In this document: one piece after another, positions 5,582 through 26,754 of the stretch | Layout of the letters: each line of letters begins with the position of its first letter | Numbering within the stretch: the first letter of the stretch is position 1 | IMG/VR virus record: IMGVR_UViG_3300042445_001485 | DNA from: a virus | Lineage: Duplodnaviria > Caudoviricetes | Length of the DNA stretch: 64,000 bases | Strand: one strand, 5' to 3' | Position numbers and translations under genes: made by a program | The notes under the pieces: generated by a model | Database searches by the model: none | Told to the model about the DNA's origin: nothing | What the model saw: only the letters and a program-made list of their open reading frames with translations

Positions 5582-5869
5582 TTAAAAATCTATAGACTTA
5601 TTAATTTGGTCCAATTGTAAAGCAAAGTAACTGGCTTCGCCAGGAATTTCGAAAGACACACATTTGGACATGAATATAGCATTATCCTCATTGATAGCGT
5701 ATCTGTCACCAATGAAAAATCGACCTTCTGTATTGGAATAAACCCAATCCGAAAGATCTTTTGCACTTACTTTGGAATCAAAAGTTACTTGTATAAAATG
5801 GGGAGGACAGTGATCGACTTTACGCAAGCCAAACACTGCCAGGGGATTAACCTCTCCGTATCGTAACAT
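5582..5869 (-). CDS. Hypothetical protein
   Basis: 95 aa ORF; start overlaps the upstream stop (TAATG). Confidence 0.7.
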   Translation of the reverse strand: MLRYGEVNPLAVFGLRKVDHCPPHFIQVTFDSKVSAKDLSDWVYSNTEGRFFIGDRYAINEDNAIFMSKCVSFEIPGEASYFALQLDQINKSIDF

Positions 5870-6564
5870 TATTCGTCTTTGTTGGGCATGACACCAATTA
5901 ACTGTAACAAGTGAATAAAGATGTTGATGAAATCCATGTACAAAGTCAATGCACCAATTATTTCCACAGGCTCATCACTTTCTACACTAACCATTTCTCG
6001 AATCTGTTGTGTGTCGTATGCAGTCAAGGCCATGAATATCACAATAGCGATGGCACTAATAACAGTTTGGAACACACTTGACCCAATCCAGATATTAATC
6101 AGGCTGGCAATGATGATTGCAATAAGAGCAACGAACATGTACTTGCCAACACTGTCAAGATTTCGTTTGGTAAAATATCCATACAGGCTCAAGGTACCAA
6201 ACAAGACTCCTGCACCCATAAATGCTGTAACAATACTGCCCATACTAAACACCACAAAGATACTGGCAAAACTTAGACCCATCAAGGCTGCAAAGGCATG
6301 TAGTAATGTCACTGCCACTTCTTTAGGCGGGTTGGCATTGAGAGCCATGCTGACTCCAAAGATAGCCACCAAGGGTGCAAAAATAGTTACCCATTTCATT
6401 GCCCCTGTAAAAAAGAATTGCATTAGTGTTGAATCGGTACCTACCCAGTAACTGACCAACATGCTGACAACAACAGCACACATCATGTGAAAGTACACAC
6501 GGCCCATTGCTTGATTAATTGCGGGGGCATCTCGGTAAGTGCCCAGTGTCATAGTATCATACAT
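5869..6564 (-). CDS. yccA: Bax inhibitor-1/YccA family membrane protein
   Basis: About 7 hydrophobic helices, AYDTQQIR and GALTLYMDFINIF signature. Start taken at ATG 6564, which overlaps the upstream stop. Confidence 0.88.
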   Translation of the reverse strand: MYDTMTLGTYRDAPAINQAMGRVYFHMMCAVVVSMLVSYWVGTDSTLMQFFFTGAMKWVTIFAPLVAIFGVSMALNANPPKEVAVTLLHAFAALMGLSFASIFVVFSMGSIVTAFMGAGVLFGTLSLYGYFTKRNLDSVGKYMFVALIAIIIASLINIWIGSSVFQTVISAIAIVIFMALTAYDTQQIREMVSVESDEPVEIIGALTLYMDFINIFIHLLQLIGVMPNKDE

Positions 6565-6889
6565 TTGCTTTTTCCTTTCGTTTTTTCTGTTTTTTTCCAT
6601 TGGTCAAAACAGTAATTTTCATTGGACCATAATCGGGTTGTTCGATTACAATCTTGCTTTGCAAACACTCGTCGGCCTGCGATTTAAAGCCTTCGAGTAT
6701 TTCAAACTGACGAGTAATTTGTGCAATCTCCACTGCCCGACTCAGGTCCTCTAAACGCATTTCCAATTCCATAATACGCTCAATTGCCGAAGGTACATCT
6801 TCGGGTGCATTGTGGTAAGTCGGCTCTGGCAATGCAGGAATGTCTTTCTCATCCACTGCTGTAGTATTTACACTATTGAGTACATTCAT
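6557..6889 (-). CDS. Hypothetical protein
   Basis: Start MNVLN at 6889 lies immediately after the VWA gene stop; 110 aa. Confidence 0.65.
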   Translation of the reverse strand: MNVLNSVNTTAVDEKDIPALPEPTYHNAPEDVPSAIERIMELEMRLEDLSRAVEIAQITRQFEILEGFKSQADECLQSKIVIEQPDYGPMKITVLTNGKKQKKRKEKANV

Positions 6890-15692: not shown

Positions 15693-16277
15693 TTAGCCTA
15701 AACCTGCTACCGATTGTTTCTCTACATTTGCTACCGATTGTTTCCATAGACGCTCTTCGAAACTGTCTGTGTCTTGCGGTTTATCCATTGCTTGTTTTAG
15801 TATCAGTTCAACATATTGGTTAAGAGTAATGTCGCGATCATGTGCTTGCTTCATCATCTCAAACACCAACTCATCCTCTAAATCCAACGGAACATCTACA
15901 CGACTATCATAGTCTAGACCGGCCACAATGGCCTGGGCTTTGTCCAACCAGTCTGCGTCTGTTTCTAGATCAACATAGTCAACATCGTCCCATGCTTCTC
16001 GACGACTAACACCACGCCGCTTGGCTTCTTTTTTGTTGGCTTTGGCATAGTCTGCATTGATCAACCTATATGCTCTATTGTTGACATAGTCGTGTGCTTG
16101 CACTTCGTATACTGCCTGTGTATCAGTATCGAACACAATACTAAAACTATGACCATCTGGCTCACCATTCCATGAATCCAACATGTAGGCATTGGATCCG
16201 TAACATTGCCATCCATACTCACTACCTTCGGTGATACGGTAGTTTACAGTTTCCATAAATTGTTTAAGAGAGATCAT
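15693..16277 (-). CDS. Hypothetical protein, possible C-terminal ribbon-helix-helix
   Basis: 194 aa; the segment VPLDLEDELVFEMMKQAHDRDITLNQYVELIL is RHH-like. Confidence 0.65.
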   Translation of the reverse strand: MISLKQFMETVNYRITEGSEYGWQCYGSNAYMLDSWNGEPDGHSFSIVFDTDTQAVYEVQAHDYVNNRAYRLINADYAKANKKEAKRRGVSRREAWDDVDYVDLETDADWLDKAQAIVAGLDYDSRVDVPLDLEDELVFEMMKQAHDRDITLNQYVELILKQAMDKPQDTDSFEERLWKQSVANVEKQSVAGLG

Positions 16278-16434
16278 TGTTTGTTTCCTTGCGTTGATTT
16301 ACTACAATTTCAAGCCATCCCACTACAGCAATTAGCCATCCTGTGTTACCTAGCTGATCCCAAGTTGCCACAACCATAATAATAGACATTATTAAAATTG
16401 CAATTGATACTATTTCTTTAACTGTTTTCATCAT
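16264..16434 (-). CDS. Small two-TM membrane protein
   Basis: Start MMKTVK; two hydrophobic segments. Confidence 0.55.
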   Translation of the reverse strand: MMKTVKEIVSIAILIMSIIMVVATWDQLGNTGWLIAVVGWLEIVVNQRKETNNDLS

Positions 16435-16831
16435 TGTTCTTTCTGCCGCTATGGGCTTCACATACTGTTTTAATCCAACCACCACCCGTACTCTTACCAG
16501 GGTTACCGCATGTTTCGCAAGTAACACCCGACATAGATTGTGCCATACTAACAAGTCCGTCAATGTAGTCATCACCACCTGTGTAGTAAAAACGTAGTGT
16601 ACCAAACTTTTCTTTAACTTGATCTACAGTTACCTGTGTTACAATCTCACCTTTTCTATTCCGCCAATCAATGTGATGTTGTATATTGCCCATGAGTTGA
16701 TCAATGATATTGTACCAACCATCGCCACATTCAAATCCCCAATACATGGTGGTTTCCATCATGCTCTTGTTACGATTCACCATCATCTTGGGATACTTCT
16801 CACATAACAATGCGTCTAGTTCCAATTTCAT
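16418..16831 (-). CDS. Hypothetical phage protein
   Basis: 137 aa; GFECGDGW, QVKEKFGTLRFY and TCETCG motifs. Confidence 0.75.
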   Translation of the reverse strand: MKLELDALLCEKYPKMMVNRNKSMMETTMYWGFECGDGWYNIIDQLMGNIQHHIDWRNRKGEIVTQVTVDQVKEKFGTLRFYYTGGDDYIDGLVSMAQSMSGVTCETCGNPGKSTGGGWIKTVCEAHSGRKNNDENS

Positions 16832-17103
16832 TCTTCAACTCCGAAATGTTCTTTCATCTTCTTATCTTCCGCCAAGGCGCCAAAGATAATAGATGCAAAT
16901 GTCCAACATACTAATGCAGGTATCATTAACATGAACATTACTGCTAATCTTATGCCTCCTTCGCCGTCTGAGTATTTTAACCCAGTCCATGTTGTATTAG
17001 TCCAAAACCAATAAAACATATCAATAAATGATACCAAAAGGGGTGAGGCAAATAACAATGTAAATGCTGACAATATTGTGGCTAATAGTTTCCAAATCAT
17101 CAT
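16828..17103 (-). CDS. Membrane protein ending in the array junction (HFGVEE)
   Basis: Two hydrophobic helices; C-terminus KEHFGVEE encoded by the shared junction block. Confidence 0.7.
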   Translation of the reverse strand: MMIWKLLATILSAFTLLFASPLLVSFIDMFYWFWTNTTWTGLKYSDGEGGIRLAVMFMLMIPALVCWTFASIIFGALAEDKKMKEHFGVEE

Positions 17104-17312
17104 TCAACTCCAAAATGCGCTTTAATATGTTCATCAGGGGGCATATGATATTGATTATGATTTTTATACCAGTCAGCAGTGACCTCGGTACATTCCCGAA
17201 CAATCAACTCGGCGAACTTTTCTAATTCTTGTGACAATGAATTTCCATAGCGGTCTTGGTGTCCATTTTCAAAGCCGGCCTGTTCAGCAAGTTCTATGAT
17301 TCGTTCGTTCAT
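17100..17312 (-). CDS. MNERI-family array paralog
   Basis: MNERIIELAEQA...EKFAELIVREC...HFGVE. Confidence 0.85.
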   Translation of the reverse strand: MNERIIELAEQAGFENGHQDRYGNSLSQELEKFAELIVRECTEVTADWYKNHNQYHMPPDEHIKAHFGVE

Positions 17313-17608
17313 AGTTCAACTCCGAAATGATGTACAATTTCATTTACGATGGCATCTTCATCGGGAGCAAATCTACATTGTCTGACAATATCACAACATT
17401 CTTTCACAATCAACTCGGCGAACTTTTCCTGGTCTAATGCTTTGATTTCTGTATATCCACCATCAGTATATCCAACAACTTTTTGAGCCTGTAGAGCAAG
17501 TTGTTTAATCCGTTCGTTCATATCTTTTCGTCCTTTATGTACAACAGTGGCAGAATCCTGAATAGCATCAACTAGTATCTTGTGTTCGTCTGGTGTAAGT
17601 TCATTCAT
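17309..17608 (-). CDS. MNERI-family array paralog with a 29 aa N-terminal extension (internal start 17521)
   Basis: MNELTP...MNERIKQLALQA...EKFAELIVKEC...HHFGVEL. Confidence 0.8.
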   Translation of the reverse strand: MNELTPDEHKILVDAIQDSATVVHKGRKDMNERIKQLALQAQKVVGYTDGGYTEIKALDQEKFAELIVKECCDIVRQCRFAPDEDAIVNEIVHHFGVEL

Positions 17609-17865
17609 TCTTCAACTCCGAAACGATATGAGATATCTTCGTAAATAGTTTCTGCCCGTTTATCTGCCGCGGCACTTTCATCCGAGTAACTATAATTGTA
17701 TTCTCCTGCTGGACCGTAAGTATTTGACTTAACAATGCCCAAACATTCCCGCACAATCAACTCGGCGAACTTTTGTTCATCGAAGTCAGCTACCAACAGC
17801 TCACCATTTACTCCGTAAGTTTCAATTCGGCACGGTTCAGCAAGTTCTTTAATTCGTTCATTCAT
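17605..17865 (-). CDS. MNERI-family array paralog
   Basis: MNERIKELAE...QKFAELIVREC...RFGVEE. Confidence 0.85.
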   Translation of the reverse strand: MNERIKELAEPCRIETYGVNGELLVADFDEQKFAELIVRECLGIVKSNTYGPAGEYNYSYSDESAAADKRAETIYEDISYRFGVEE

Positions 17866-18113
17866 TCTTTAACTCCAAAATGTTTTCTAATCTTTCTAAC
17901 CGTATCCTTGTCATGTTCTTTCAACGCACGAACTCGTTCATTGGCAAATGGCTCATGTGGATTTAGTATCATGTACCGTTGATCCACAAACAAGTCGGCA
18001 CATTCTTTCACAATCAACTCGGCGAACTGTTCTACATCGAGTTCTCCATTGGAATACCCACTGGTTCCTAGTGTAAATGCCTGATCATAAAGTTCTTGCA
18101 TTCGTTCGTTCAT
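17862..18113 (-). CDS. MNERI-family array paralog
   Basis: MNERMQEL...EQFAELIVKEC...KHFGVKE. Confidence 0.85.
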   Translation of the reverse strand: MNERMQELYDQAFTLGTSGYSNGELDVEQFAELIVKECADLFVDQRYMILNPHEPFANERVRALKEHDKDTVRKIRKHFGVKE

Positions 18114-18331
18114 AGTTCAACTCCGAAAAAATGTCGCTTGACTGTAGCAAAATCTGGCCAGGGTTGATCGTCTAGTGTGGCATTAAGAATGTAAGCATAT
18201 ACTTCAACTAATACCAACTCAGCGAATTTCAAGTCCACAAATTGTTGATAATGGTCCAGTTTAAGTCCAGCGTTAACGCCGTCAACATAGTCCGTGGCCT
18301 GTTGTTTAAGTTCTTTAATTCGTGTGGTCAT
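18110..18331 (-). CDS. MNERI-family array paralog (divergent)
   Basis: MTTRIKELKQQA...LKFAELVLVEV...HFFGVEL. Confidence 0.8.
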   Translation of the reverse strand: MTTRIKELKQQATDYVDGVNAGLKLDHYQQFVDLKFAELVLVEVYAYILNATLDDQPWPDFATVKRHFFGVEL

Positions 18332-18423
18332 TTCTCTAACCCTTTAACAAAAAGACTGCCTACTATTGCCAACAGGAATAACATTCCAAGAGCAATAGCA
18401 TAAACTATTAAAAATTCAATCAT
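18328..18423 (-). CDS. 31 aa membrane peptide (not in the ORF track)
   Basis: MIEFLIVYAIALGMLFLLAIVGSLFVKGLEK; ATGA overlaps at both ends and a GGAG SD. Confidence 0.6.
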   Translation of the reverse strand: MIEFLIVYAIALGMLFLLAIVGSLFVKGLEK

Positions 18424-18551
18424 TCTTCAACTCCTTTAGTACAAGAGATTTTATCTGGGCTGTACATCAGCACAAAGTTACCAACATTCAATGTGCCCAG
18501 CACAGCCAGCAACACTACAAATCCACCAACCACGGCAAACAGTGTCTTCAT
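18420..18551 (-). CDS. 43 aa membrane peptide ending in GVEE (not in the ORF track)
   Basis: MKTLFAVVGGFVVLLAVLGTLNVGNFVLMYSPDKISCTKGVEE. Confidence 0.65.
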   Translation of the reverse strand: MKTLFAVVGGFVVLLAVLGTLNVGNFVLMYSPDKISCTKGVEE

Positions 18552-18748
18552 TCTTTAACTCCGAAATGTTGTTTAATATCATTTACTGCACTGCGAGCAT
18601 CATAATGATTACCTGCAAGTTCAATACAATCTGCCACAAGCAACTGGGCGAACTTGTTCAGTTCATATCCTGTAACATCTTTCAGTACAGTCCCGTCTTT
18701 GTTAAAGACCTCAGACTGGATCAACAGTTGTTTAATTCGTTCGTTCAT
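18548..18748 (-). CDS. MNERI-family array paralog
   Basis: MNERIKQL...NKFAQLLVADC...QHFGVKE. Confidence 0.85.
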   Translation of the reverse strand: MNERIKQLLIQSEVFNKDGTVLKDVTGYELNKFAQLLVADCIELAGNHYDARSAVNDIKQHFGVKE

Positions 18749-18981
18749 TCTTCAACTCCGAAATGTTTAAAAATTTTTGAACAGCACCAATCGCCATCGG
18801 CTTTCTCTCGGTCAATGATTTCTTCAACACATTCCCGCACAATCAACTCGGCGAACTTTTCGTTATACACTTCCCCAAACTTGATGGCATAATCTTCATC
18901 ACTTAAATCAAGGTAATCTATCATTAAGGTATTGGCGTATTTTGTAGCCTCTACAGCAAGTTCTTTAATTAGTTCGTTCAT
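18745..18981 (-). CDS. MNERI-family array paralog
   Basis: MNELIKELA...EKFAELIVREC...KHFGVEE. Confidence 0.85.
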   Translation of the reverse strand: MNELIKELAVEATKYANTLMIDYLDLSDEDYAIKFGEVYNEKFAELIVRECVEEIIDREKADGDWCCSKIFKHFGVEE

Positions 18982-19108
18982 TCTTCAACTCCTCACTCAA
19001 TTCTTCGATTCGTTCTGCCGCCATCAACAACAGCATCTGGAGGGCAATATTATCAGCCACGCTTTTGGCCGCTGTCTTCATTGTTTCTGATAATTCATAG
19101 TCTGTCAT
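18965..19108 (-). CDS. 47 aa hypothetical peptide reading the junction in another frame (not in the ORF track)
   Basis: MTDYELSETMKTAAKSVADNIALQMLLLMAAERIEELSEELKNERTN. Confidence 0.55.
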   Translation of the reverse strand: MTDYELSETMKTAAKSVADNIALQMLLLMAAERIEELSEELKNERTN

Positions 19109-19308
19109 TCTTTAACTCCGTAATGTTTGTTGAATCGCTCAGAGAAAGGTTCCAAGCCATATCCAGGCACAAAGTCAGCAGAGACCTGAGCACATTCCCG
19201 CACAATCAACTCGGCGAACTTGTGCAGTTCAGGAGTAAGACTACCATCTTCGTTAATAAAGGTGCGAGTATTAGCCTGTCTAACAAGTTGTTTAATTCGT
19301 TCGTTCAT
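19105..19308 (-). CDS. MNERI-family array paralog
   Basis: MNERIKQL...HKFAELIVREC...KHYGVKE; directly downstream of the promoter at 19338. Confidence 0.85.
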   Translation of the reverse strand: MNERIKQLVRQANTRTFINEDGSLTPELHKFAELIVRECAQVSADFVPGYGLEPFSERFNKHYGVKE

Positions 19309-19327
19309 TTTAGGCTCCTTTTAGTTT

Positions 19328-19504
19328 CTATACAAGTATTATAACAAATGGGTAATTATTGGTCAACCGCTTTTGCCCGCACATCTGTGTTGAGTGCAGG
19401 TCAACATTATCGGACAGCATAAGTTGTCCATCAGACAATTCAATGTATCCTTTTTCTAGGGTGGCACCAGCCTGTTTAGCAAGTTCTTTCAATCGTTCGT
19501 TCAT
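19328..19504 (-). pseudogene. Truncated MNERI-family paralog interrupted by a promoter cassette
   Basis: MNERLKELAKQAG...DNVDL lacks the KFAELIV and HFGVEE blocks and runs into the promoter sequence. Confidence 0.65.
19338..19366 (-). promoter_or_regulatory. Sigma70-type early promoter inside the array
   Basis: TTGACC-N17-TATAAT-ACTTGTATAGAAACTAAAAGGAG; nearly identical leader to the promoter at 10116. Confidence 0.85.
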
Positions 19505-19505
19505 G

Positions 19506-19697
19506 TCAATTACCCCAGCCAACGTTTTTGGATGCTTGCACATGATCCGCTGTTTGTTTCTTTTCAAACATGATCTTAGAATAATACTCGCCGGTGTCAC
19601 CTTGGAAACATGGATCGCCCAGTGCGGCATATCTCCATTTAGACAGCAACTGCTCGTATGTTGCGCCGTCAATCCATGCTTTGGTCTGTTCGTTCAT
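19506..19697 (-). CDS. Small hypothetical protein
   Basis: 63 aa ORF with GGAG SD and ATGA overlap. Confidence 0.65.
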   Translation of the reverse strand: MNEQTKAWIDGATYEQLLSKWRYAALGDPCFQGDTGEYYSKIMFEKKQTADHVQASKNVGWGN

Positions 19698-19900
19698 TTT
19701 ACTTCTCCGTGTAGGACTTCGTAATCTGCCACTCGCTGACGCATTTCAGCAATGGCTTTCTCTTGGGCAGCAGGATAACCACCGGCTGGACGATTGCGGT
19801 CAAGACCATCCAGCACTGACTTGTCCGAGGCAATTGTTGCGTGGTTGTTGATGCTGGGGTCAGTGCCACGACCGATAATCTTTAAGTTGAAAAACATCAT
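19694..19900 (-). CDS. Small hypothetical protein
   Basis: Start MMFFN after a GGAG SD, downstream of a promoter. Confidence 0.6.
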   Translation of the reverse strand: MMFFNLKIIGRGTDPSINNHATIASDKSVLDGLDRNRPAGGYPAAQEKAIAEMRQRVADYEVLHGEVK

Positions 19901-19932
19901 TGAACTCCTATTCACTATCAATCAATACATGT

Positions 19933-19961
19933 ATTATATACCCAAAATCATTTTCTGTCAA
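19933..19961 (-). promoter_or_regulatory. Sigma70-type early promoter inside the array
   Basis: TTGACA-N17-TATAAT-ACATGTATTGA. Confidence 0.85.
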
Positions 19962-19975
19962 TTCAGTAGAAAGTA

Positions 19976-20212
19976 TTACTTTTCTTCAACTCCGAAATGT
20001 TTTCCTATCCGCTTAGAACAATCATCTGCCCAAGCACTATATAATCCATCGTGATGTGTTCCTCTGTCAGCACAGACTTTAACACATTCTTCTACAATCA
20101 ACTCGGCGAACTGTTCAATGTCTATGTCTGTCATCAGTTCGATAACTTCACGGTCAGTTGGCCAGAAAACCATTTGAGATTGTTTTGCAAGTTCTTTAAT
20201 TCGTTTGTTCAT
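19976..20212 (-). CDS. MNERI-family array paralog
   Basis: MNKRIKELAKQ...EQFAELIVEEC...KHFGVEEK. Confidence 0.85.
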   Translation of the reverse strand: MNKRIKELAKQSQMVFWPTDREVIELMTDIDIEQFAELIVEECVKVCADRGTHHDGLYSAWADDCSKRIGKHFGVEEK

Positions 20213-20393
20213 TCTTTAACTCCAAATTTTTCCCATCAACCAACATCATATTCATGGCACACTTATGACAGATATAACAGAATTGTGTATCAAGGTCAGC
20301 ATAAGTTTCATACTCATGATTAAATGTATCACAATACGAACACAAAATCTTTACACGATTGTGATGATTAATTTTGACCTTTTCTATTATCAT
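20196..20393 (-). CDS. Small zinc-ribbon-like protein
   Basis: CSYC...CYICHKC; ends ELKNEQTN, which is the junction read in another frame. Confidence 0.6.
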   Translation of the reverse strand: MIIEKVKINHHNRVKILCSYCDTFNHEYETYADLDTQFCYICHKCAMNMMLVDGKNLELKNEQTN

Positions 20394-20519
20394 TCTTCAA
20401 CTCCAAAACAGTTTTTTAACATAACTGAAAATAATCATAAAAATGGTAAAGTAAGCAGCCGCACCCGCCATCAACAGATACACAACAGCCCACCAACCTG
20501 CTCGGTCACCTTCGGTCAT
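20390..20519 (-). CDS. 42 aa membrane peptide ending in FGVEE (not in the ORF track)
   Basis: MTEGDRAGWWAVVYLLMAGAAAYFTIFMIIFSYVKNCFGVEE. Confidence 0.6.
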
Positions 20520-20704
20520 TCTTTAACTCCGAAATGTTTCAACAAAAATTCTAAATCAGGGTGACCTTTATGAAAGGCAGTATCAATACATTCCCGCACA
20601 ATCAACTCGGCGAACCGTTCCATAAACTTTGTCTGTTCTTCCCAAGAATCACTTTGAGTTGTTTTAGCAGCCTCTTCCCAAATTTGTTTAATTCGTTCGT
20701 TCAT
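20516..20704 (-). CDS. MNERI-family array paralog
   Basis: MNERIKQI...ERFAELIVREC...KHFGVKE. Confidence 0.85.
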   Translation of the reverse strand: MNERIKQIWEEAAKTTQSDSWEEQTKFMERFAELIVRECIDTAFHKGHPDLEFLLKHFGVKE

Positions 20705-20961
20705 TCTTCAACTCCAAAATGGTTTTTAAACCTTGTTCGCCACTGATTCAACCATTCAATGTATTCAGTGGGTCTTTCGCTTGGTTCAAAACAATGATAG
20801 GCATCATCTTCGGCCTGTTCCATCATTCCACACATTTCCCTGACAATCAACTCGGCGAACTTTTCCGCTTCTTCTTGATTAAGAGAAAGTCCAACTGAGG
20901 CATCATAGCAAGGAACACCACCTATTGCCCGAATCATAAGTTGTTTGATTCGTTCGTTCAC
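20701..20961 (-). CDS. MNERI-family array paralog
   Basis: MNERIKQL...EKFAELIVREMC...NHFGVEE. Confidence 0.85.
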   Translation of the reverse strand: MNERIKQLMIRAIGGVPCYDASVGLSLNQEEAEKFAELIVREMCGMMEQAEDDAYHCFEPSERPTEYIEWLNQWRTRFKNHFGVEE

Positions 20962-21254
20962 GATTCAACTCCGAAATGTTCTTCCAACATATCCACAGCA
21001 TCTTCCTTCAAACGGTATGCGGCAAACAAAGCACCGCTGGCGTTGTGTGCTTGACCCTGTGGTGGATTACGACTAAACTGCTCCCAACTCTCGCCCGAAT
21101 CTTTTAGTAGTTCACAACATTCCCGCACAATCAACTCGGCGAACTTTGCCAAATTCTCATCAGTGAATGCCAATCCAGTGACGGCTCTCATAGGAGCACG
21201 ACTCCAAGTTTCGGCTCCAGCCTGTTCGGCAAGTTCTCTAATTCGTTCATTCAT
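20958..21254 (-). CDS. MNERI-family array paralog
   Basis: MNERIRELAEQA...AKFAELIVRECC...EHFGVES. Confidence 0.85.
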   Translation of the reverse strand: MNERIRELAEQAGAETWSRAPMRAVTGLAFTDENLAKFAELIVRECCELLKDSGESWEQFSRNPPQGQAHNASGALFAAYRLKEDAVDMLEEHFGVES

Positions 21255-21257
21255 TCT

Positions 21258-21476
21258 TCAACTCCGAAATGTTTTGTGTAGGGCTTCAAGATAATTGTCG
21301 GTGCCCATATGTAAATTGCCATTATCAATCTTATCATAAATTCCAGCACATTCACCGACAATCAACTCGGCGAACTTTTCCTTGAATGTTATTACATAAC
21401 CTACGCCATATAATTCATTTTGTTCATTGGCATATTCAGTAGCCTGTTCAGCAAGTTTTTGAATTCGTTCATTCAT
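21258..21476 (-). CDS. MNERI-family array paralog with the terminal block out of frame
   Basis: MNERIQKLAEQA...EKFAELIVGEC...LHKTFRS; the junction DNA is intact but read in a shifted frame after an A run. Confidence 0.8.
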   Translation of the reverse strand: MNERIQKLAEQATEYANEQNELYGVGYVITFKEKFAELIVGECAGIYDKIDNGNLHMGTDNYLEALHKTFRS

Positions 21477-21576
21477 ATCAAATACCCTATAATAAACGCT
21501 AATGCAAATCCTACTATACAAAAGTATAGAGTACCTATAGAGAATAAAAACGCATCATCCAAAATATCTTTTAGTT

Positions 21577-21789
21577 TCATACTGCACGACCTGTTCGCAT
21601 ATAGAGATATTCATCCAGTTCCCGTTCATAGGGTTTTCCTAGTCTCCGTAATTGAAAGATTTTATCAATCAGCTCATCACTATTACCCATAGTAGGAGAA
21701 TACTTACCACGGCTTTCCAATTCATCAATAAGTTCATCGTCATCAAAATCCGATAACTCAACTTCGACCTCAATCATTTTATATGTCAT
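21577..21789 (-). CDS. Small acidic hypothetical protein
   Basis: 70 aa ORF with ATGA overlap. Confidence 0.65.
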   Translation of the reverse strand: MTYKMIEVEVELSDFDDDELIDELESRGKYSPTMGNSDELIDKIFQLRRLGKPYERELDEYLYMRTGRAV

Positions 21790-22004
21790 TCTTCAGACTC
21801 CTGCATTCCAAAGTATTCCACGATGCTGTTGTAGACTTCATAATTGCCGTCAGCCTTGAGCGCACCGATATCAGCACATTTCTGCACAATCAGTTCGGCG
21901 AACTTCTCAATATCAAAGTGTTTGTCAATCATAAATCTTTTTTGATCATACACTTGATTCCATGCACCGCATTGTAGTGCAAGTTCTTTAAATCGTTTGT
22001 TCAT
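21786..22004 (-). CDS. MNERI-family array paralog
   Basis: MNKRFKELA...EKFAELIVQKC...EYFGMQE. Confidence 0.8.
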   Translation of the reverse strand: MNKRFKELALQCGAWNQVYDQKRFMIDKHFDIEKFAELIVQKCADIGALKADGNYEVYNSIVEYFGMQESEE

Positions 22005-22219
22005 TCTTCAATTCCAAAATGTTTCTTGATATGTTTGGCAACTGTATAGCCTTGCCCTAAAGTCAACTCATCAAATTTGTAAGCAATGTCTGCACATTCC
22101 AACACAATCAATCTAGCAAACTCTTTGTTGTAAGTTTCAATCCATTTGTCTACAGCAAGTATACCTTGTGGTACATTTTCTTTAGCCCGAGTGGCAAGAG
22201 CCTGTGTACGCTCATTCAC
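22001..22219 (-). CDS. MNERI-family array paralog (divergent)
   Basis: MNERTQALA...KEFARLIVLEC...KHFGIEE. Confidence 0.8.
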   Translation of the reverse strand: MNERTQALATRAKENVPQGILAVDKWIETYNKEFARLIVLECADIAYKFDELTLGQGYTVAKHIKKHFGIEE

Positions 22220-23205
22220 TCTGGATAACTCCTAGAAAGAAAGTCCACATGTGACTGTGCCTGTTCGCTGATGCGTTTCAAATCATACTTGCCACAGAAC
22301 TTTAGGAACAGAGTACCAATCTGCGGTATTGACTTGACTACACTATTTGTGGCAATGGTTTCTGCAATGATTGCTTTGATATTATCAGGCTGTGCAGAAA
22401 GATCCACCAACACACGATTGCGTTCATAGTCATCTAGTACACGGTGTTCTGCACCATTATGGTCTACCCAACGTTGCAACATCATATTGTTCCAAGAGAA
22501 ACCTTTATTTTCACGGTCTTGGAAGGCTTCCTCGAGCCCAATTCTTTTCGAAGAGCCCTTAGTGCGGACACCAGGGAATGCCGAGAAGATGTTGTCGGTG
22601 GGATCTCCGCGCATACACTTTTCGAACAGTATCCATTTAGGGTCTGGAATAGTTTTTGCTTCTTTAGTTTTTTTATCTTTAACTGGGGCACCTTTCTTGT
22701 CAAAGATGCCTGTGGTGGTATGGAGCTCATCTGATATTCCGTTATATTGTTTAACATTGTTGGCCAGCAGTTGATAAAAGTCTGTGTCAGAACTTACGAT
22801 TATGTGTTCATCTCCAGGGTGTGCTTGAATCCATCCTGCCACCAGGTCATCCGCTTCGAGTTGGCTGTGCTGGAGAACAGTACAATTGGACTTTTCGTAC
22901 AGGAACGTTTTGAGTTCATCAAAAGCGTCCCAAAATAGTTGATCTTCTTCTTGCTCTTTTTCAGTGAGTGCCGCACGGGCAACTGCTCGATTTTTCTTGT
23001 ACGGCTCATAGTAATCCTTACGCCACGAACGACCTTCTAAACAGAATATGACATGATCAGCCCGCTGATCGCGAAATGCTTTTGCAACACTACTCAGTGT
23101 GACATGGATTGCAAACCCAAGTCTATCCCAAGTGTCGCTCTGACGATGTGCCGCATGACGAGCACGGAAGAAAGTATTTGCGGTGTCTACAATAAGATAT
23201 TTCAT
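22216..23205 (-). CDS. rnh: 5'-3' exonuclease / T4 RNase H-like (FEN family)
   Basis: YLIVDTANTFFR, LEADDLV, IVSSDTDFYQL and GDPTDNIFS acidic clusters. Start at MKYLIVD after a promoter-like site (TTGACT-N17-TATTAT). Confidence 0.88.
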   Translation of the reverse strand: MKYLIVDTANTFFRARHAAHRQSDTWDRLGFAIHVTLSSVAKAFRDQRADHVIFCLEGRSWRKDYYEPYKKNRAVARAALTEKEQEEDQLFWDAFDELKTFLYEKSNCTVLQHSQLEADDLVAGWIQAHPGDEHIIVSSDTDFYQLLANNVKQYNGISDELHTTTGIFDKKGAPVKDKKTKEAKTIPDPKWILFEKCMRGDPTDNIFSAFPGVRTKGSSKRIGLEEAFQDRENKGFSWNNMMLQRWVDHNGAEHRVLDDYERNRVLVDLSAQPDNIKAIIAETIATNSVVKSIPQIGTLFLKFCGKYDLKRISEQAQSHVDFLSRSYPE

Positions 23206-23222
23206 GTAGTTATAATAGCATA

Positions 23223-23960
23223 TTATTCTATTTGAGTCAAATGCGTAACAAGATATTCTGCCCATTTTGCGTGAGCTTCTTTACCATAATGGTAATTTCC
23301 TTCAGCCACTGTTTGGAATCCTAAATTTTCGAGCCAGTAGTAATAAGTGGAATTTTGATTGTAGGGATCTATGTAGTTGTTGTGCCACTCGTACTGGCCC
23401 GGATTGATATGATTGGTTGAGATATGATCACGCTCGATTAGTGCAAAGTTTGAGTAGGTATTAAAAAATAGATGTCTAATTCCGCGAGACTTAAGACTCA
23501 TATGGAATTGGTGTATACGCTTGTGCCATTCAAGCATCTTGCGTTCTCGTTCAACTTCACCCTGCGCTACAACCCACTGTTTGTATTTATCCCGTAATTC
23601 TGGGGGAACTTGGTCCTTGCCACTTGCATTAACTTGATAATAAACATCGTTATGCAACCATTCTTCTCGTTCCCATGTACTCCAACCTATCAATATTACC
23701 AGATCATTGATGCTGGCTGTTTCGAGGAAAATCTCTGTAGTGCGTACGATCCGATCATTGGAACTACCACTTTCAGCTTGATTAATCCAATCCCATCCTA
23801 ATTTTTTAGCCGCAACGACACCAAAAGATGATGGCAAGTTTTGTGCATGACCGTGCCTATGTGGCCTAGCATAATGACGATCGCCATCGTTGGCAAAACT
23901 ATAAGGAACTACTGCTTCTGCCCCGACACTATGACTGTCGCCATTGATGTACAAGATCAT
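23223..23960 (-). CDS. SGNH/GDSL-like hydrolase-fold protein
   Basis: N-terminal NGDSH, GSSND, IGWST and C-terminal HY..EAH; start at MILYIN (ATGA overlap). Confidence 0.55.
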   Translation of the reverse strand: MILYINGDSHSVGAEAVVPYSFANDGDRHYARPHRHGHAQNLPSSFGVVAAKKLGWDWINQAESGSSNDRIVRTTEIFLETASINDLVILIGWSTWEREEWLHNDVYYQVNASGKDQVPPELRDKYKQWVVAQGEVERERKMLEWHKRIHQFHMSLKSRGIRHLFFNTYSNFALIERDHISTNHINPGQYEWHNNYIDPYNQNSTYYYWLENLGFQTVAEGNYHYGKEAHAKWAEYLVTHLTQIE

Positions 23961-25928: not shown

Positions 25929-25957
25929 ATTATAGAGTTATTCAGATGGTTAGTCAA
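25929..25957 (-). promoter_or_regulatory. Sigma70-type promoter for queE
   Basis: TTGACT-N17-TATAAT; transcript would be nearly leaderless. Confidence 0.75.
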
Positions 25958-26754
25958 TTGATTTTAAACCATTTTTTGATTACCCAAGCAGTTAGATCAA
26001 ACTCACCTGGCTTTTTTGCAGTATCATAGTCGAATGGAAATTTATGATGATTATTATGTAGCCCTTCTCCTAAATTCCAGGCCAATATCCAGCGATTGTT
26101 GTGACTGTTGTCGGGGGTATCGTAGTTCCTATATGAGCCGGGAAATTTCATGTGCAGTATTGTGCCAGAAAGTATGCCCGTATTCAGGATGGCAATACCA
26201 GCTGGCATTAGGACAAAGAATAGACAAACTTTCCAAGAGATTAAAAATGAAACTGCAATTAACATATACCAGATGTAAAAGTAGTTTTTATTTATGAACA
26301 TTACCAATGGATCTTTGGTCAAGCGTACAACACCGGATGTGGTGATTTGGATATGTTTTTCTAAAAACCAACGAGTTGGCTTAAAGATAAAACCCAGACT
26401 GCTGTGTAACCAACCATCAACGGTTGGACTGTGTATGTCCTTGGGCTGATCGCTGTATTTGTGATGATGTACATGTGTTTTTGACCATGCCAATGGATCC
26501 CCTTCGCCGCCTATAATACTCATACAGCATAGAAATATATGTCTAAGTTTACCAGTACGAAATTGTCCGTGTGCAAAATATCTATGTAGACCAATTTGTA
26601 TACTGACCAGTGTTACAGCAATTCTAGAATACACAAACCCGCATATAAACCATAGCCACAGATTGTAGTGTATGGTAACTGCAATAGACACAGGAACAGA
26701 TACTACAAATAAAAGTTGTAGAGAGACTCTTTTGAGTCTATCCAAGTTAATCAT
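25954..26754 (-). CDS. Membrane fatty acid (delta-9-like) desaturase
   Basis: His boxes HRYFAH, HVHHH and HNNHH, GEGLHNNHH, TM helices. Confidence 0.88.
   Translation of the reverse strand: MINLDRLKRVSLQLLFVVSVPVSIAVTIHYNLWLWFICGFVYSRIAVTLVSIQIGLHRYFAHGQFRTGKLRHIFLCCMSIIGGEGDPLAWSKTHVHHHKYSDQPKDIHSPTVDGWLHSSLGFIFKPTRWFLEKHIQITTSGVVRLTKDPLVMFINKNYFYIWYMLIAVSFLISWKVCLFFVLMPAGIAILNTGILSGTILHMKFPGSYRNYDTPDNSHNNRWILAWNLGEGLHNNHHKFPFDYDTAKKPGEFDLTAWVIKKWFKIN

Follow-up and report, generated by a model that had tools for sequence, protein, structure and literature searches.

A 15-nt stop-start junction bounds re-assorted genes in small-gene arrays of uncultured lake-water giant phages

Why would unrelated short genes end and begin in the same 15 nucleotides? 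The question arises from a 64,000-nt stretch of viral DNA (Duplodnaviria, Caudoviricetes; IMG/VR record IMGVR_UViG_3300042445_001485), hereafter the window, in which an array of 27 short genes lies 3′ of a 5′-3′ exonuclease gene. Sixteen of them are paralogs of one family (F1 to F16) and 11 are unrelated (N1 to N11). A block of 15 nt, GGAGTTRAAGAATGA, recurs at their boundaries with 14 matches (13 exact and one with one mismatch), all on the minus strand within 16828-22015; the chance expectation is 0.01, and none of 100 shuffles reached 14. In this block GGAG is followed by a 7-nt spacer and then by ATG, which starts the next gene; the TGA within ATGA terminates the previous one. A preliminary description, made from the letters of the window, had seen in it a universal junction combining Shine-Dalgarno sequence, stop and start, at which foreign mini-genes are captured or excised as in an integron. 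The observation is confirmed with one frame error, and the interpretation is partly supported. We read the block as a junction for translational coupling that also acts as a homology linker in general recombination, and put the probability of this reading at roughly 0.65; its behavior as a patch of homology is apparent when related genomes are compared, and the mechanism is what we infer from their sequences.

The 14 copies join genes of either kind. Family genes are connected from F1 to F2 (22001-22015; the copy with one mismatch, GGAATTGAAGAATGA), F3 to F4 (21251-21265), F5 to F6 (20701-20715), F10 to F11 (18745-18759), F13 to F14 (17862-17876) and F14 to F15 (17605-17619). The copies from F6 to N3m (20516-20530), F9 to N7 (19105-19119) and F11 to N8m (18548-18562) lead into a mini-gene, those from N4zn to F7 (20209-20223; 17-nt overlap) and N7 to F10 (18978-18992) lead back into the family, and three link non-family genes: N3m to N4zn (20390-20404), the membrane mini-genes N8m to N9m (18420-18434) and N10m to N11 (16828-16842). 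Variant blocks occupy five more array boundaries, namely GGAGTTGAACTATGA twice (F12 to F13, 18110-18124; F15 to F16, 17309-17323), GGAGTTGAATCGTGA with a GTG start (F4 to F5, 20958-20972), GGAGTTGAATGATGA (F16 to N10m, 17097-17111) and GGAGTCTGAAGAATGA (F2 to N1, 21786-21801), and a further variant, GGAGTTATCCAGAGTGA, is carried by the 3′ end of the exonuclease gene at its boundary with F1. Altogether, 20 of the 27 array boundaries are 4-nt ATGA or GTGA overlaps. The motif is not a common feature of ordinary gene boundaries: the rest of the window, about 58 kb, has only seven GGAG-N5-9-ATGA junctions, which use seven different spacers and never GGAGTTRAAGAATGA.

The upstream gene may read the block in any of the three frames. 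As had been described, the membrane proteins N10m (91 aa, 16828-17103) and N8m (43 aa, 18420-18551) end within it in frame, in TKGVEE for N8m and in KEHFGVEE for N10m, whose final eight codons are the family 3′ block, and N7 (47 aa, 18965-19108) and the CxxC..CxxC protein N4zn (65 aa, 20196-20393) read it in frame +1 and end in ELKNERTN* and ELKNEQTN*. The error concerns a gene placed at 20390-20519 and called in frame: this membrane mini-gene, N3m (40 aa), spans 20397-20519, reads frame +2 and ends in KKLFWS*, stopping at the TGA inside GTTGAAG. The family gene F3 (21258-21476), absent from the earlier list, likewise reads the block in frame +2 (TFRS*). At 389 junctions from 200 loci, the upstream gene is in frame 0 (GVEE*) 333 times, in frame +2 (..RS* or ..WS*) 27 times and in frame +1 (ELKNERTN*-like) about 19 times; for non-family upstream genes the respective counts are 43, 18 and 18. 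Many of the out-of-frame cases retain ACATTTC upstream of the block, a stretch that has no role in initiation.

Synonymous codons are also fixed in the constant blocks when compared with the variable parts of the same genes: G70 is GGA in 95% versus 25%, V71 is GTT in 94% versus 41%, R4 is CGA in 91% versus 17%, A36 is GCC in 84% versus 20% and E37 is GAG in 90% versus 22%. In an unbiased sample, consisting of loci retrieved by a DNA pattern scan for the internal block of the family alone without selection for the junction, the exact 15-mer ends 78 of 167 family genes, and 94 of the 167 end in it within one mismatch. An exact 25-mer across the junction is present in more than 120 IMG/VR stretches. 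The three-frame reading, the fixed synonymous codons and the counts from the unbiased sample indicate that the block is conserved as nucleic acid, that is, as a portable junction and not as a conserved peptide. In related arrays unrelated proteins end in just GVEE, which is what the 15-mer encodes, and the last five residues are coil in an AlphaFold model of one family member (pLDDT 82); it is therefore plausible that GVEE is a by-product of the junction, as had been suggested.

The junction has the sequence features of a translationally coupled boundary, with GGAG 7 nt before ATG, the ATGA overlap and unstructured RNA: folding of six junctions in 61-nt contexts revealed no excess structure relative to shuffled sequences (z from -0.5 to +1.6) and no inverted repeat or hairpin. 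We infer that it is a standard translation-coupling signal. The 15-mer contains TGA in two frames and the N-terminal block of the following family gene contains TAA in the third, so that an upstream open reading frame in any frame stops within 27 nt and the downstream start is kept.

To compare related genomes at this site, we fetched 80 loci via the flanking exonuclease gene. In the closest relative (L001; exonuclease 97% identical at the protein level) the order is exonuclease, F1 and N11, and 5.17 kb of the array is absent. The left- and right-hand homologies switch inside AACATTTYGGARTTGAMGAATGAA, and the missing 5.17 kb lies between the F1-F2 junction (22001-22015), its left breakpoint, and the N10m-N11 junction (16828-16842), its right breakpoint. 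At the same site in L005 the exonuclease is immediately followed by N11, L003 and L004 carry no insert, and L002 holds two family genes; all of these boundaries are gene-precise. Thus, insertion and deletion breakpoints between related genomes map to the junction, as had been anticipated, and the endpoints of homology within the arrays agree. When the window array was compared with all other contigs, 31 segments of 110-257 nt were shared at 80-96% identity across many different contigs. These segments have 54 internal endpoints. No more than 5 nt separates 49 of them from a constant block (expected, 19.8 ± 3.5), a number reached in none of 2000 randomizations, and a single endpoint lies more than 15 nt inside variable DNA. 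This test was restricted to arrays; an earlier version that took all loci, using megablast and matches of at least 300 nt, gave weak enrichment because most endpoints lie outside arrays.

Such an array might instead be born locally, by tandem duplication and divergence within one lineage, with the junction shared by descent and the non-family genes being decayed or overprinted members. Tandem paralogs with common ends would be expected from this, F3 is indeed a frameshifted and F8t (19328-19504) a truncated family copy, and some genes called non-family elsewhere are frameshifted family genes (L088, L103 and L147). However, the variable segments of the 16 window paralogs have no DNA similarity to each other, self-matches being confined to blocks of at most 58 nt, and each has copies of 80-96% identity in other phage contigs; the segment matches already point to window paralogs grouping with the copies of other phages. 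The closest relatives hold zero to two genes at the site, five related fragments of 93-220 kb lack the exact 15-mer, and the membrane and zinc-ribbon-like mini-genes recur intact elsewhere. Since the variable parts are mutually unrelated, the array was assembled from a shared pool and not by recent local duplication, and we consider the local origin improbable.

The family itself follows the pattern MNERIKELAEQ..KFAELIVREC..HFGVEE, as deduced from the alignment of the 16 window members. A profile search found 7,979 metagenomic proteins at E ≤ 0.001 among 8,000 candidates, and 83 of the best 120 matches end in HFGVEE. Neither the family nor the mini-genes have a match in Pfam or PHROGs, and the AlphaFold model of the family member has none in the PDB and retrieves only viral hypothetical clusters from the ESM Atlas. 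The central KFAELIVREC block separates two variable segments, V1 and V2, which re-assort: 446 family genes comprise 299 V1 clusters, 320 V2 clusters and 404 combinations. Pairs of genes that share one variable segment share the other in 17-22%, and pairs that share V2 have the same downstream neighbor in 21%, so the central block and the junction break linkage equally. The proposal that recombination occurs at the junction is upheld as to the breakpoints found there, but the junction is not the sole site of exchange. Without any role at a start site, the internal block nevertheless has synonymous sites that are just as fixed; its equal loss of linkage fits general homologous recombination.

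An internal GTG start in the central block was considered and rejected, as only 44% of copies have GTG at that codon. Nor does the family resemble the targets of a diversity-generating retroelement, because the segments are unalignable, vary in length and are replaced as a whole; reverse transcriptase was not searched for. Recombination scars are seen in metagenomic family proteins, with a duplicated internal block in P0022 (KFAELIVREFAELIVREC), two internal blocks in P0004 and fused double genes in P0001 and P0002. One contig (L205:1495-1711, compared with window 17100-17312) is identical to the window over 1,616 nt and then continues from the KFAELIVREC block of F16 into an unrelated second half that ends in TFRS* and the junction. 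The switch is within 95 nt of the contig end, and the contig is either a strain-level recombinant or a contig-end chimera.

Comparison of cassette content between related genomes, which had been proposed as a check, returned the same mini-genes with different neighbors. Five of them (N3m, N4zn, N7, N8m and N9m) recur in other contigs with the junction at their boundary. Homologs of N3m have neighbors that differ from those in the window (L148, L125, L194, L106 and L284), those of N4zn are placed between other genes (L179 and L208), that of N7 lies between two different family genes (L119) and that of N8m between two unrelated genes (L160), and those of N9m (84-94% amino acid identity) have other neighbors (L090 and L085). 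Among 392 junctions outside the window, 134 join two family genes, 177 lead from a family gene to another gene, 37 lead from another gene to a family gene and 44 join two other genes. Together with the three in the window there are 47 junctions of the last kind, and a family gene is found no more than 1 kb away from 43 of them. The junction is restricted to the arrays of one family and the term universal was too strong; from their positions, the non-family mini-genes are guests in these arrays. Mapping of the junction was extended genome-wide in five related IMG/VR records, among which a complete relative of 374 kb has 17 copies on one strand in three clusters. Its three arrays (G001:C1:180000-184000, 201500-205000 and 235000-239500; L300-L302) alternate family and unrelated genes, nearly all joined by ggagttgaaga followed by ATG, and several of the unrelated proteins end in just GVEE.

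The mechanism that we envisage needs no dedicated site-specific recombinase. The 15-mer would be the core of a linker conserved as DNA in small-gene arrays of uncultured lake-water jumbo phages, in which GGAG would serve as the Shine-Dalgarno sequence, TTRAAGA as an unstructured spacer of 7 nt, ATG as the start of the next gene and ATGA as the stop of the previous one. At family-to-family junctions the tract in common is about 45-58 nt long, since the 15-mer runs on into the MNERIKELA start block, and a second constant patch of about 30-50 nt, encoding KFAELIVREC, is located inside each family gene. With a phage RecA/UvsX-type enzyme, general homologous recombination could cross over at these constant patches, and the crossovers would insert and delete whole genes and half-genes and swap them among phages in a co-infection. 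Any non-family mini-gene that has acquired the junction would travel along as a cassette. Both complete relatives, and one fragment as well, carry a gene of the RecA/UvsX type.

An integron-like process, in which a dedicated recombinase would use the junction as an attC/attI-like site to excise and insert circular cassettes, had been the mechanism first suggested, with the remark that no integrase is visible in the window. Short promoterless genes on one strand with a common boundary element, and mini-genes that recur in different contexts, are what it would produce, and the authors who described a comparable element in T4-type phages drew the same analogy (PMC2839356). The remark was correct, as neither a tyrosine nor a serine recombinase was found among the 30 window ORFs scanned, and PF00589 (tyrosine recombinase) and PF00239 (serine recombinase) had no match in five related junction-carrying records, two of them 100% complete. 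The junction lacks both an inverted repeat and an attC-like fold, breakpoints vary within and around the block with no single fixed position, and the internal coding block exchanges equally. A mechanism of this kind is therefore highly improbable.

Several points count against a junction that acts as a homology linker. Between two non-family genes the shared tract is the 15-mer only and begins exactly at GGAG; because this tract coincides with the functional initiation region, selection on initiation could explain part of its conservation there. A tract of 15 nt is also short for homologous recombination of the T4 type. BLAST alignments extend through shared blocks, and hence the endpoint test demonstrates units bounded by blocks and not the place of crossover. 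The array is structurally invariant in seven near-identical contigs, so exchange is not frequent over a few years. Contigs of the Logan assemblies made at short k break at every constant block, where the joints are to other family members of the community, and all of the evidence is comparative and comes from metagenomic assemblies.

The first of these points leads to an account in terms of function alone: the 15-mer would be kept as an efficient, or specifically regulated, signal for translation initiation and coupling and as the family C-terminus, breakpoints at gene edges would represent the only viable products of illegitimate recombination, and homology would play no role. It would explain why conservation between non-family genes starts exactly at the Shine-Dalgarno GGAG and why the junction is unstructured, as suits a good start site; it also suits an array in early, sigma70-driven operons, and some indels at the hot spot (L003 and L005) are gene-precise though the boundary on one side lacks the motif. 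On the other hand, there is no known need to fix the 7-nt spacer, for which the other coupled junctions of the window use seven different sequences. The KFAELIVREC block shows the same synonymous fixation and loss of linkage without a start-site role, and the retention of ACATTTC in out-of-frame cases would have no reason in initiation. In one version of this account the whole block would be recognized by a phage factor, for example a repressor like RegA or a nuclease of the RegB type that cuts at GGAG; no homolog of RegB (PF10715) or RegA (PF01818) was found in searches that had no positive control. On balance, we regard conservation by function alone as unlikely.

The mosaics might also be false, if assemblers jump between strains at the repeated blocks and thereby create spurious changes of neighbor. 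Breakage of the short-k contigs at these blocks would invite this, as would their depth: summed over contigs, it is 4-8 times as high at constant blocks as in unique array DNA (window 15800-23300; runs X1, X7, X13 and X18), which means that numerous further copies of the family occur together in these lake samples. The switch in L205, at most 95 nt from the contig end, is of the kind expected from such an error. The blocks of at most 58 nt are, however, shorter than the reads and than the large k used (k141 for one supporting contig). At least 15 contigs carry the gene F14, and the seven that were fetched (from JGI, ENA and NCBI) derive from separate samples and pipelines and are 99.8-100% identical to the window, which argues against a chimeric assembly. 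Cassette contexts are also found again in paired contigs, such as L148 with L125 and L184 with L190. An assembly artefact is thus very doubtful as the source of the pattern.

Beyond the reading of the junction as a translational signal that also supplies homology, a bolder one would see a combinatorial system at the level of the population. The linkers, that is, the frame-tolerant junction and the internal block, would be selected for evolvability, and cassettes, whole genes as well as half-genes, of a very large family of small early proteins, with more than 7,900 relatives and probably acting in host takeover or anti-defense, would be continually re-assorted among phages in a co-infection. 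Foreign open reading frames could be captured in any frame, and a nuclease or binding protein specific to the block might stimulate exchange. We regard this extension as speculative.

Elements of comparable behavior have been described in cultured phages. The promoter-early stem-loops (PeSLs) of T4-type phages (Arbiol et al., 2010, PMC2839356; Comeau et al., 2014, PMC4122927) are regulatory cassettes that provide homology for general recombination, which is said to need less than 50 bp, and no integrase was found (PMC2839356); mini-circles of PeSLs have been demonstrated (PMC2839356; PMC4122927). PeSLs are short conserved regulatory elements repeated among small ORFans in hyperplastic regions of T4-related phages, and the constant blocks studied here are likewise located in a hyperplastic small-gene region. 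In both cases indels and replacements between close relatives map to the element, a homology linker acting through general recombination without an integrase has been proposed, and the element ensures expression of the incoming gene. PeSLs lie between genes and combine a sigma70-like promoter with a stable stem-loop terminator, after which come a Shine-Dalgarno sequence and a start. In contrast, the 15-nt junction has neither promoter nor stem-loop; its stop, Shine-Dalgarno sequence and start overlap within coding sequence, and it would act on translation, with upstream genes reading it in three frames. As it lacks the defining sigma70 promoter and stem-loop, the junction is a functional analogue of PeSLs and not a member of their class.

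Other precedents are more distant. In the gp38 adhesins of T2/T6-type phages (Trojet et al., 2011, PMC3157838), conserved glycine-rich motifs alternate with hypervariable segments that are exchanged at the motifs, and the KFAELIVREC block behaves in this way; the gp38 motifs lie inside one structural gene and have a structural role, whereas the blocks of the arrays also span gene boundaries and join unrelated genes. The linker sequences of Botstein and Campbell in modular phage evolution, discussed in PMC2839356, are conserved flanks that target the exchange of modules and keep them placed and regulated, as here, but this is a general concept for lambdoid phages, and the present case is a concrete translational linker of 15 nt with a known sequence and hundreds of copies. 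Integron cassettes (IntI, attI and attC) share the one-strand arrays, the short and mostly promoterless genes, the repeated boundary element and the re-use of cassettes, and differ in that here no IntI-type recombinase was found, an attC hairpin and a single crossover point are lacking, and part of the exchange takes place inside genes.

Most documented cases of modular shuffling by linkers in large lytic phages concern promoter-terminator cassettes, the PeSLs, of a few cultured T4-type phages. In the present arrays the linker is a translational junction of 15 nt inside coding DNA, read in three frames and spread over hundreds of contigs of uncultured freshwater jumbo phages, in which breakpoints, cassette re-use and re-assortment of half-genes are all visible and measurable. 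Its defined sequence offers a handle for tracking gene flow among environmental phages, for finding accessory or ORFan cassettes by their boundaries and for asking what minimum of homology suffices for recombination of the T4 type. The element resembles a natural standard part for operon assembly, which would stop the upstream frame in two registers, take the third stop from the following family gene and then restart translation.

The window represents part of the genome of an uncultured giant phage from lake water. Its DNA polymerase shares 51% identity with the enzyme of Sinorhizobium phage Phosso and 47% with the enzyme of Agrobacterium phage Atu_ph07, and nearly all genes of the window are on the minus strand. 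Near-identical DNA was found only in lake-water metagenome runs (24 runs returned, 17 of them with at least half of the sampled words), and this phage genotype recurs in samples dated 2020-2024. Cultured phages gave no DNA match and no protein match to the array or its gene family, and we found no account of the family or the junction in the literature.

The array spans 16828-22219 on the minus strand, as do all genes described in this paragraph, with the 16 family paralogs and 10 non-family mini-genes followed by non-family N11; it is missing from the closest relatives. Its conserved upstream anchor at this hot spot is the RNase H/FEN-like 5′-3′ exonuclease (22216-23265; PF02739, phrog_107; 597 relatives found). 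The downstream anchor is the conserved N11 (137 aa, 16418-16831), found directly after F1 in L001 and after the exonuclease in L005. The unrelated genes include five membrane mini-proteins, one CxxC..CxxC protein and others. Besides those described above, they are the acidic N1 (70 aa, 21577-21789), with homologs in 10 other loci, the membrane mini-gene N2m (35 aa, 21473-21580), N5 and N6 (19506-19900), which are served by an internal promoter and have no junction, and the membrane cassette N9m (31 aa, 18328-18423). F15 contains an extra module of 29 residues (17522-17608) between the junction and the internal MNERIK start block, which is 94-96% identical in L033, L123 and L155 and points to an additional slot for cassettes or to an alternative start. 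A small membrane gene (MMKTVKEIV.., 16264-16435) overlaps the end of N11 and appears in ORF lists only within a longer ORF started by TTG; its counterpart directly follows the exonuclease in L003 and L004 and the second family gene in L002.

The array has just two intergenic gaps, and two strong sigma70-type promoters are located there, both on the minus strand. One matches the consensus perfectly (12/12, TTGACA-17-TATAAT; 19933-19961), and the other, with 11 of 12 positions and TG, is inside the replaced 3′ half of the truncated F8t (19338-19366). No terminator-like site was seen on the coding strand of the array. This arrangement suggests early transcription of the array in three operon segments, and the two near-perfect promoters may be PeSL-like insertions that split it into three early operons. 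Elsewhere in the window, two unusual auxiliary genes are encoded on the minus strand, one for a Bax-inhibitor-1 family membrane protein (5869-6600; PF01027, E 3e-50) and the other for a fatty-acid desaturase-like protein (25954-26754; PF00487).

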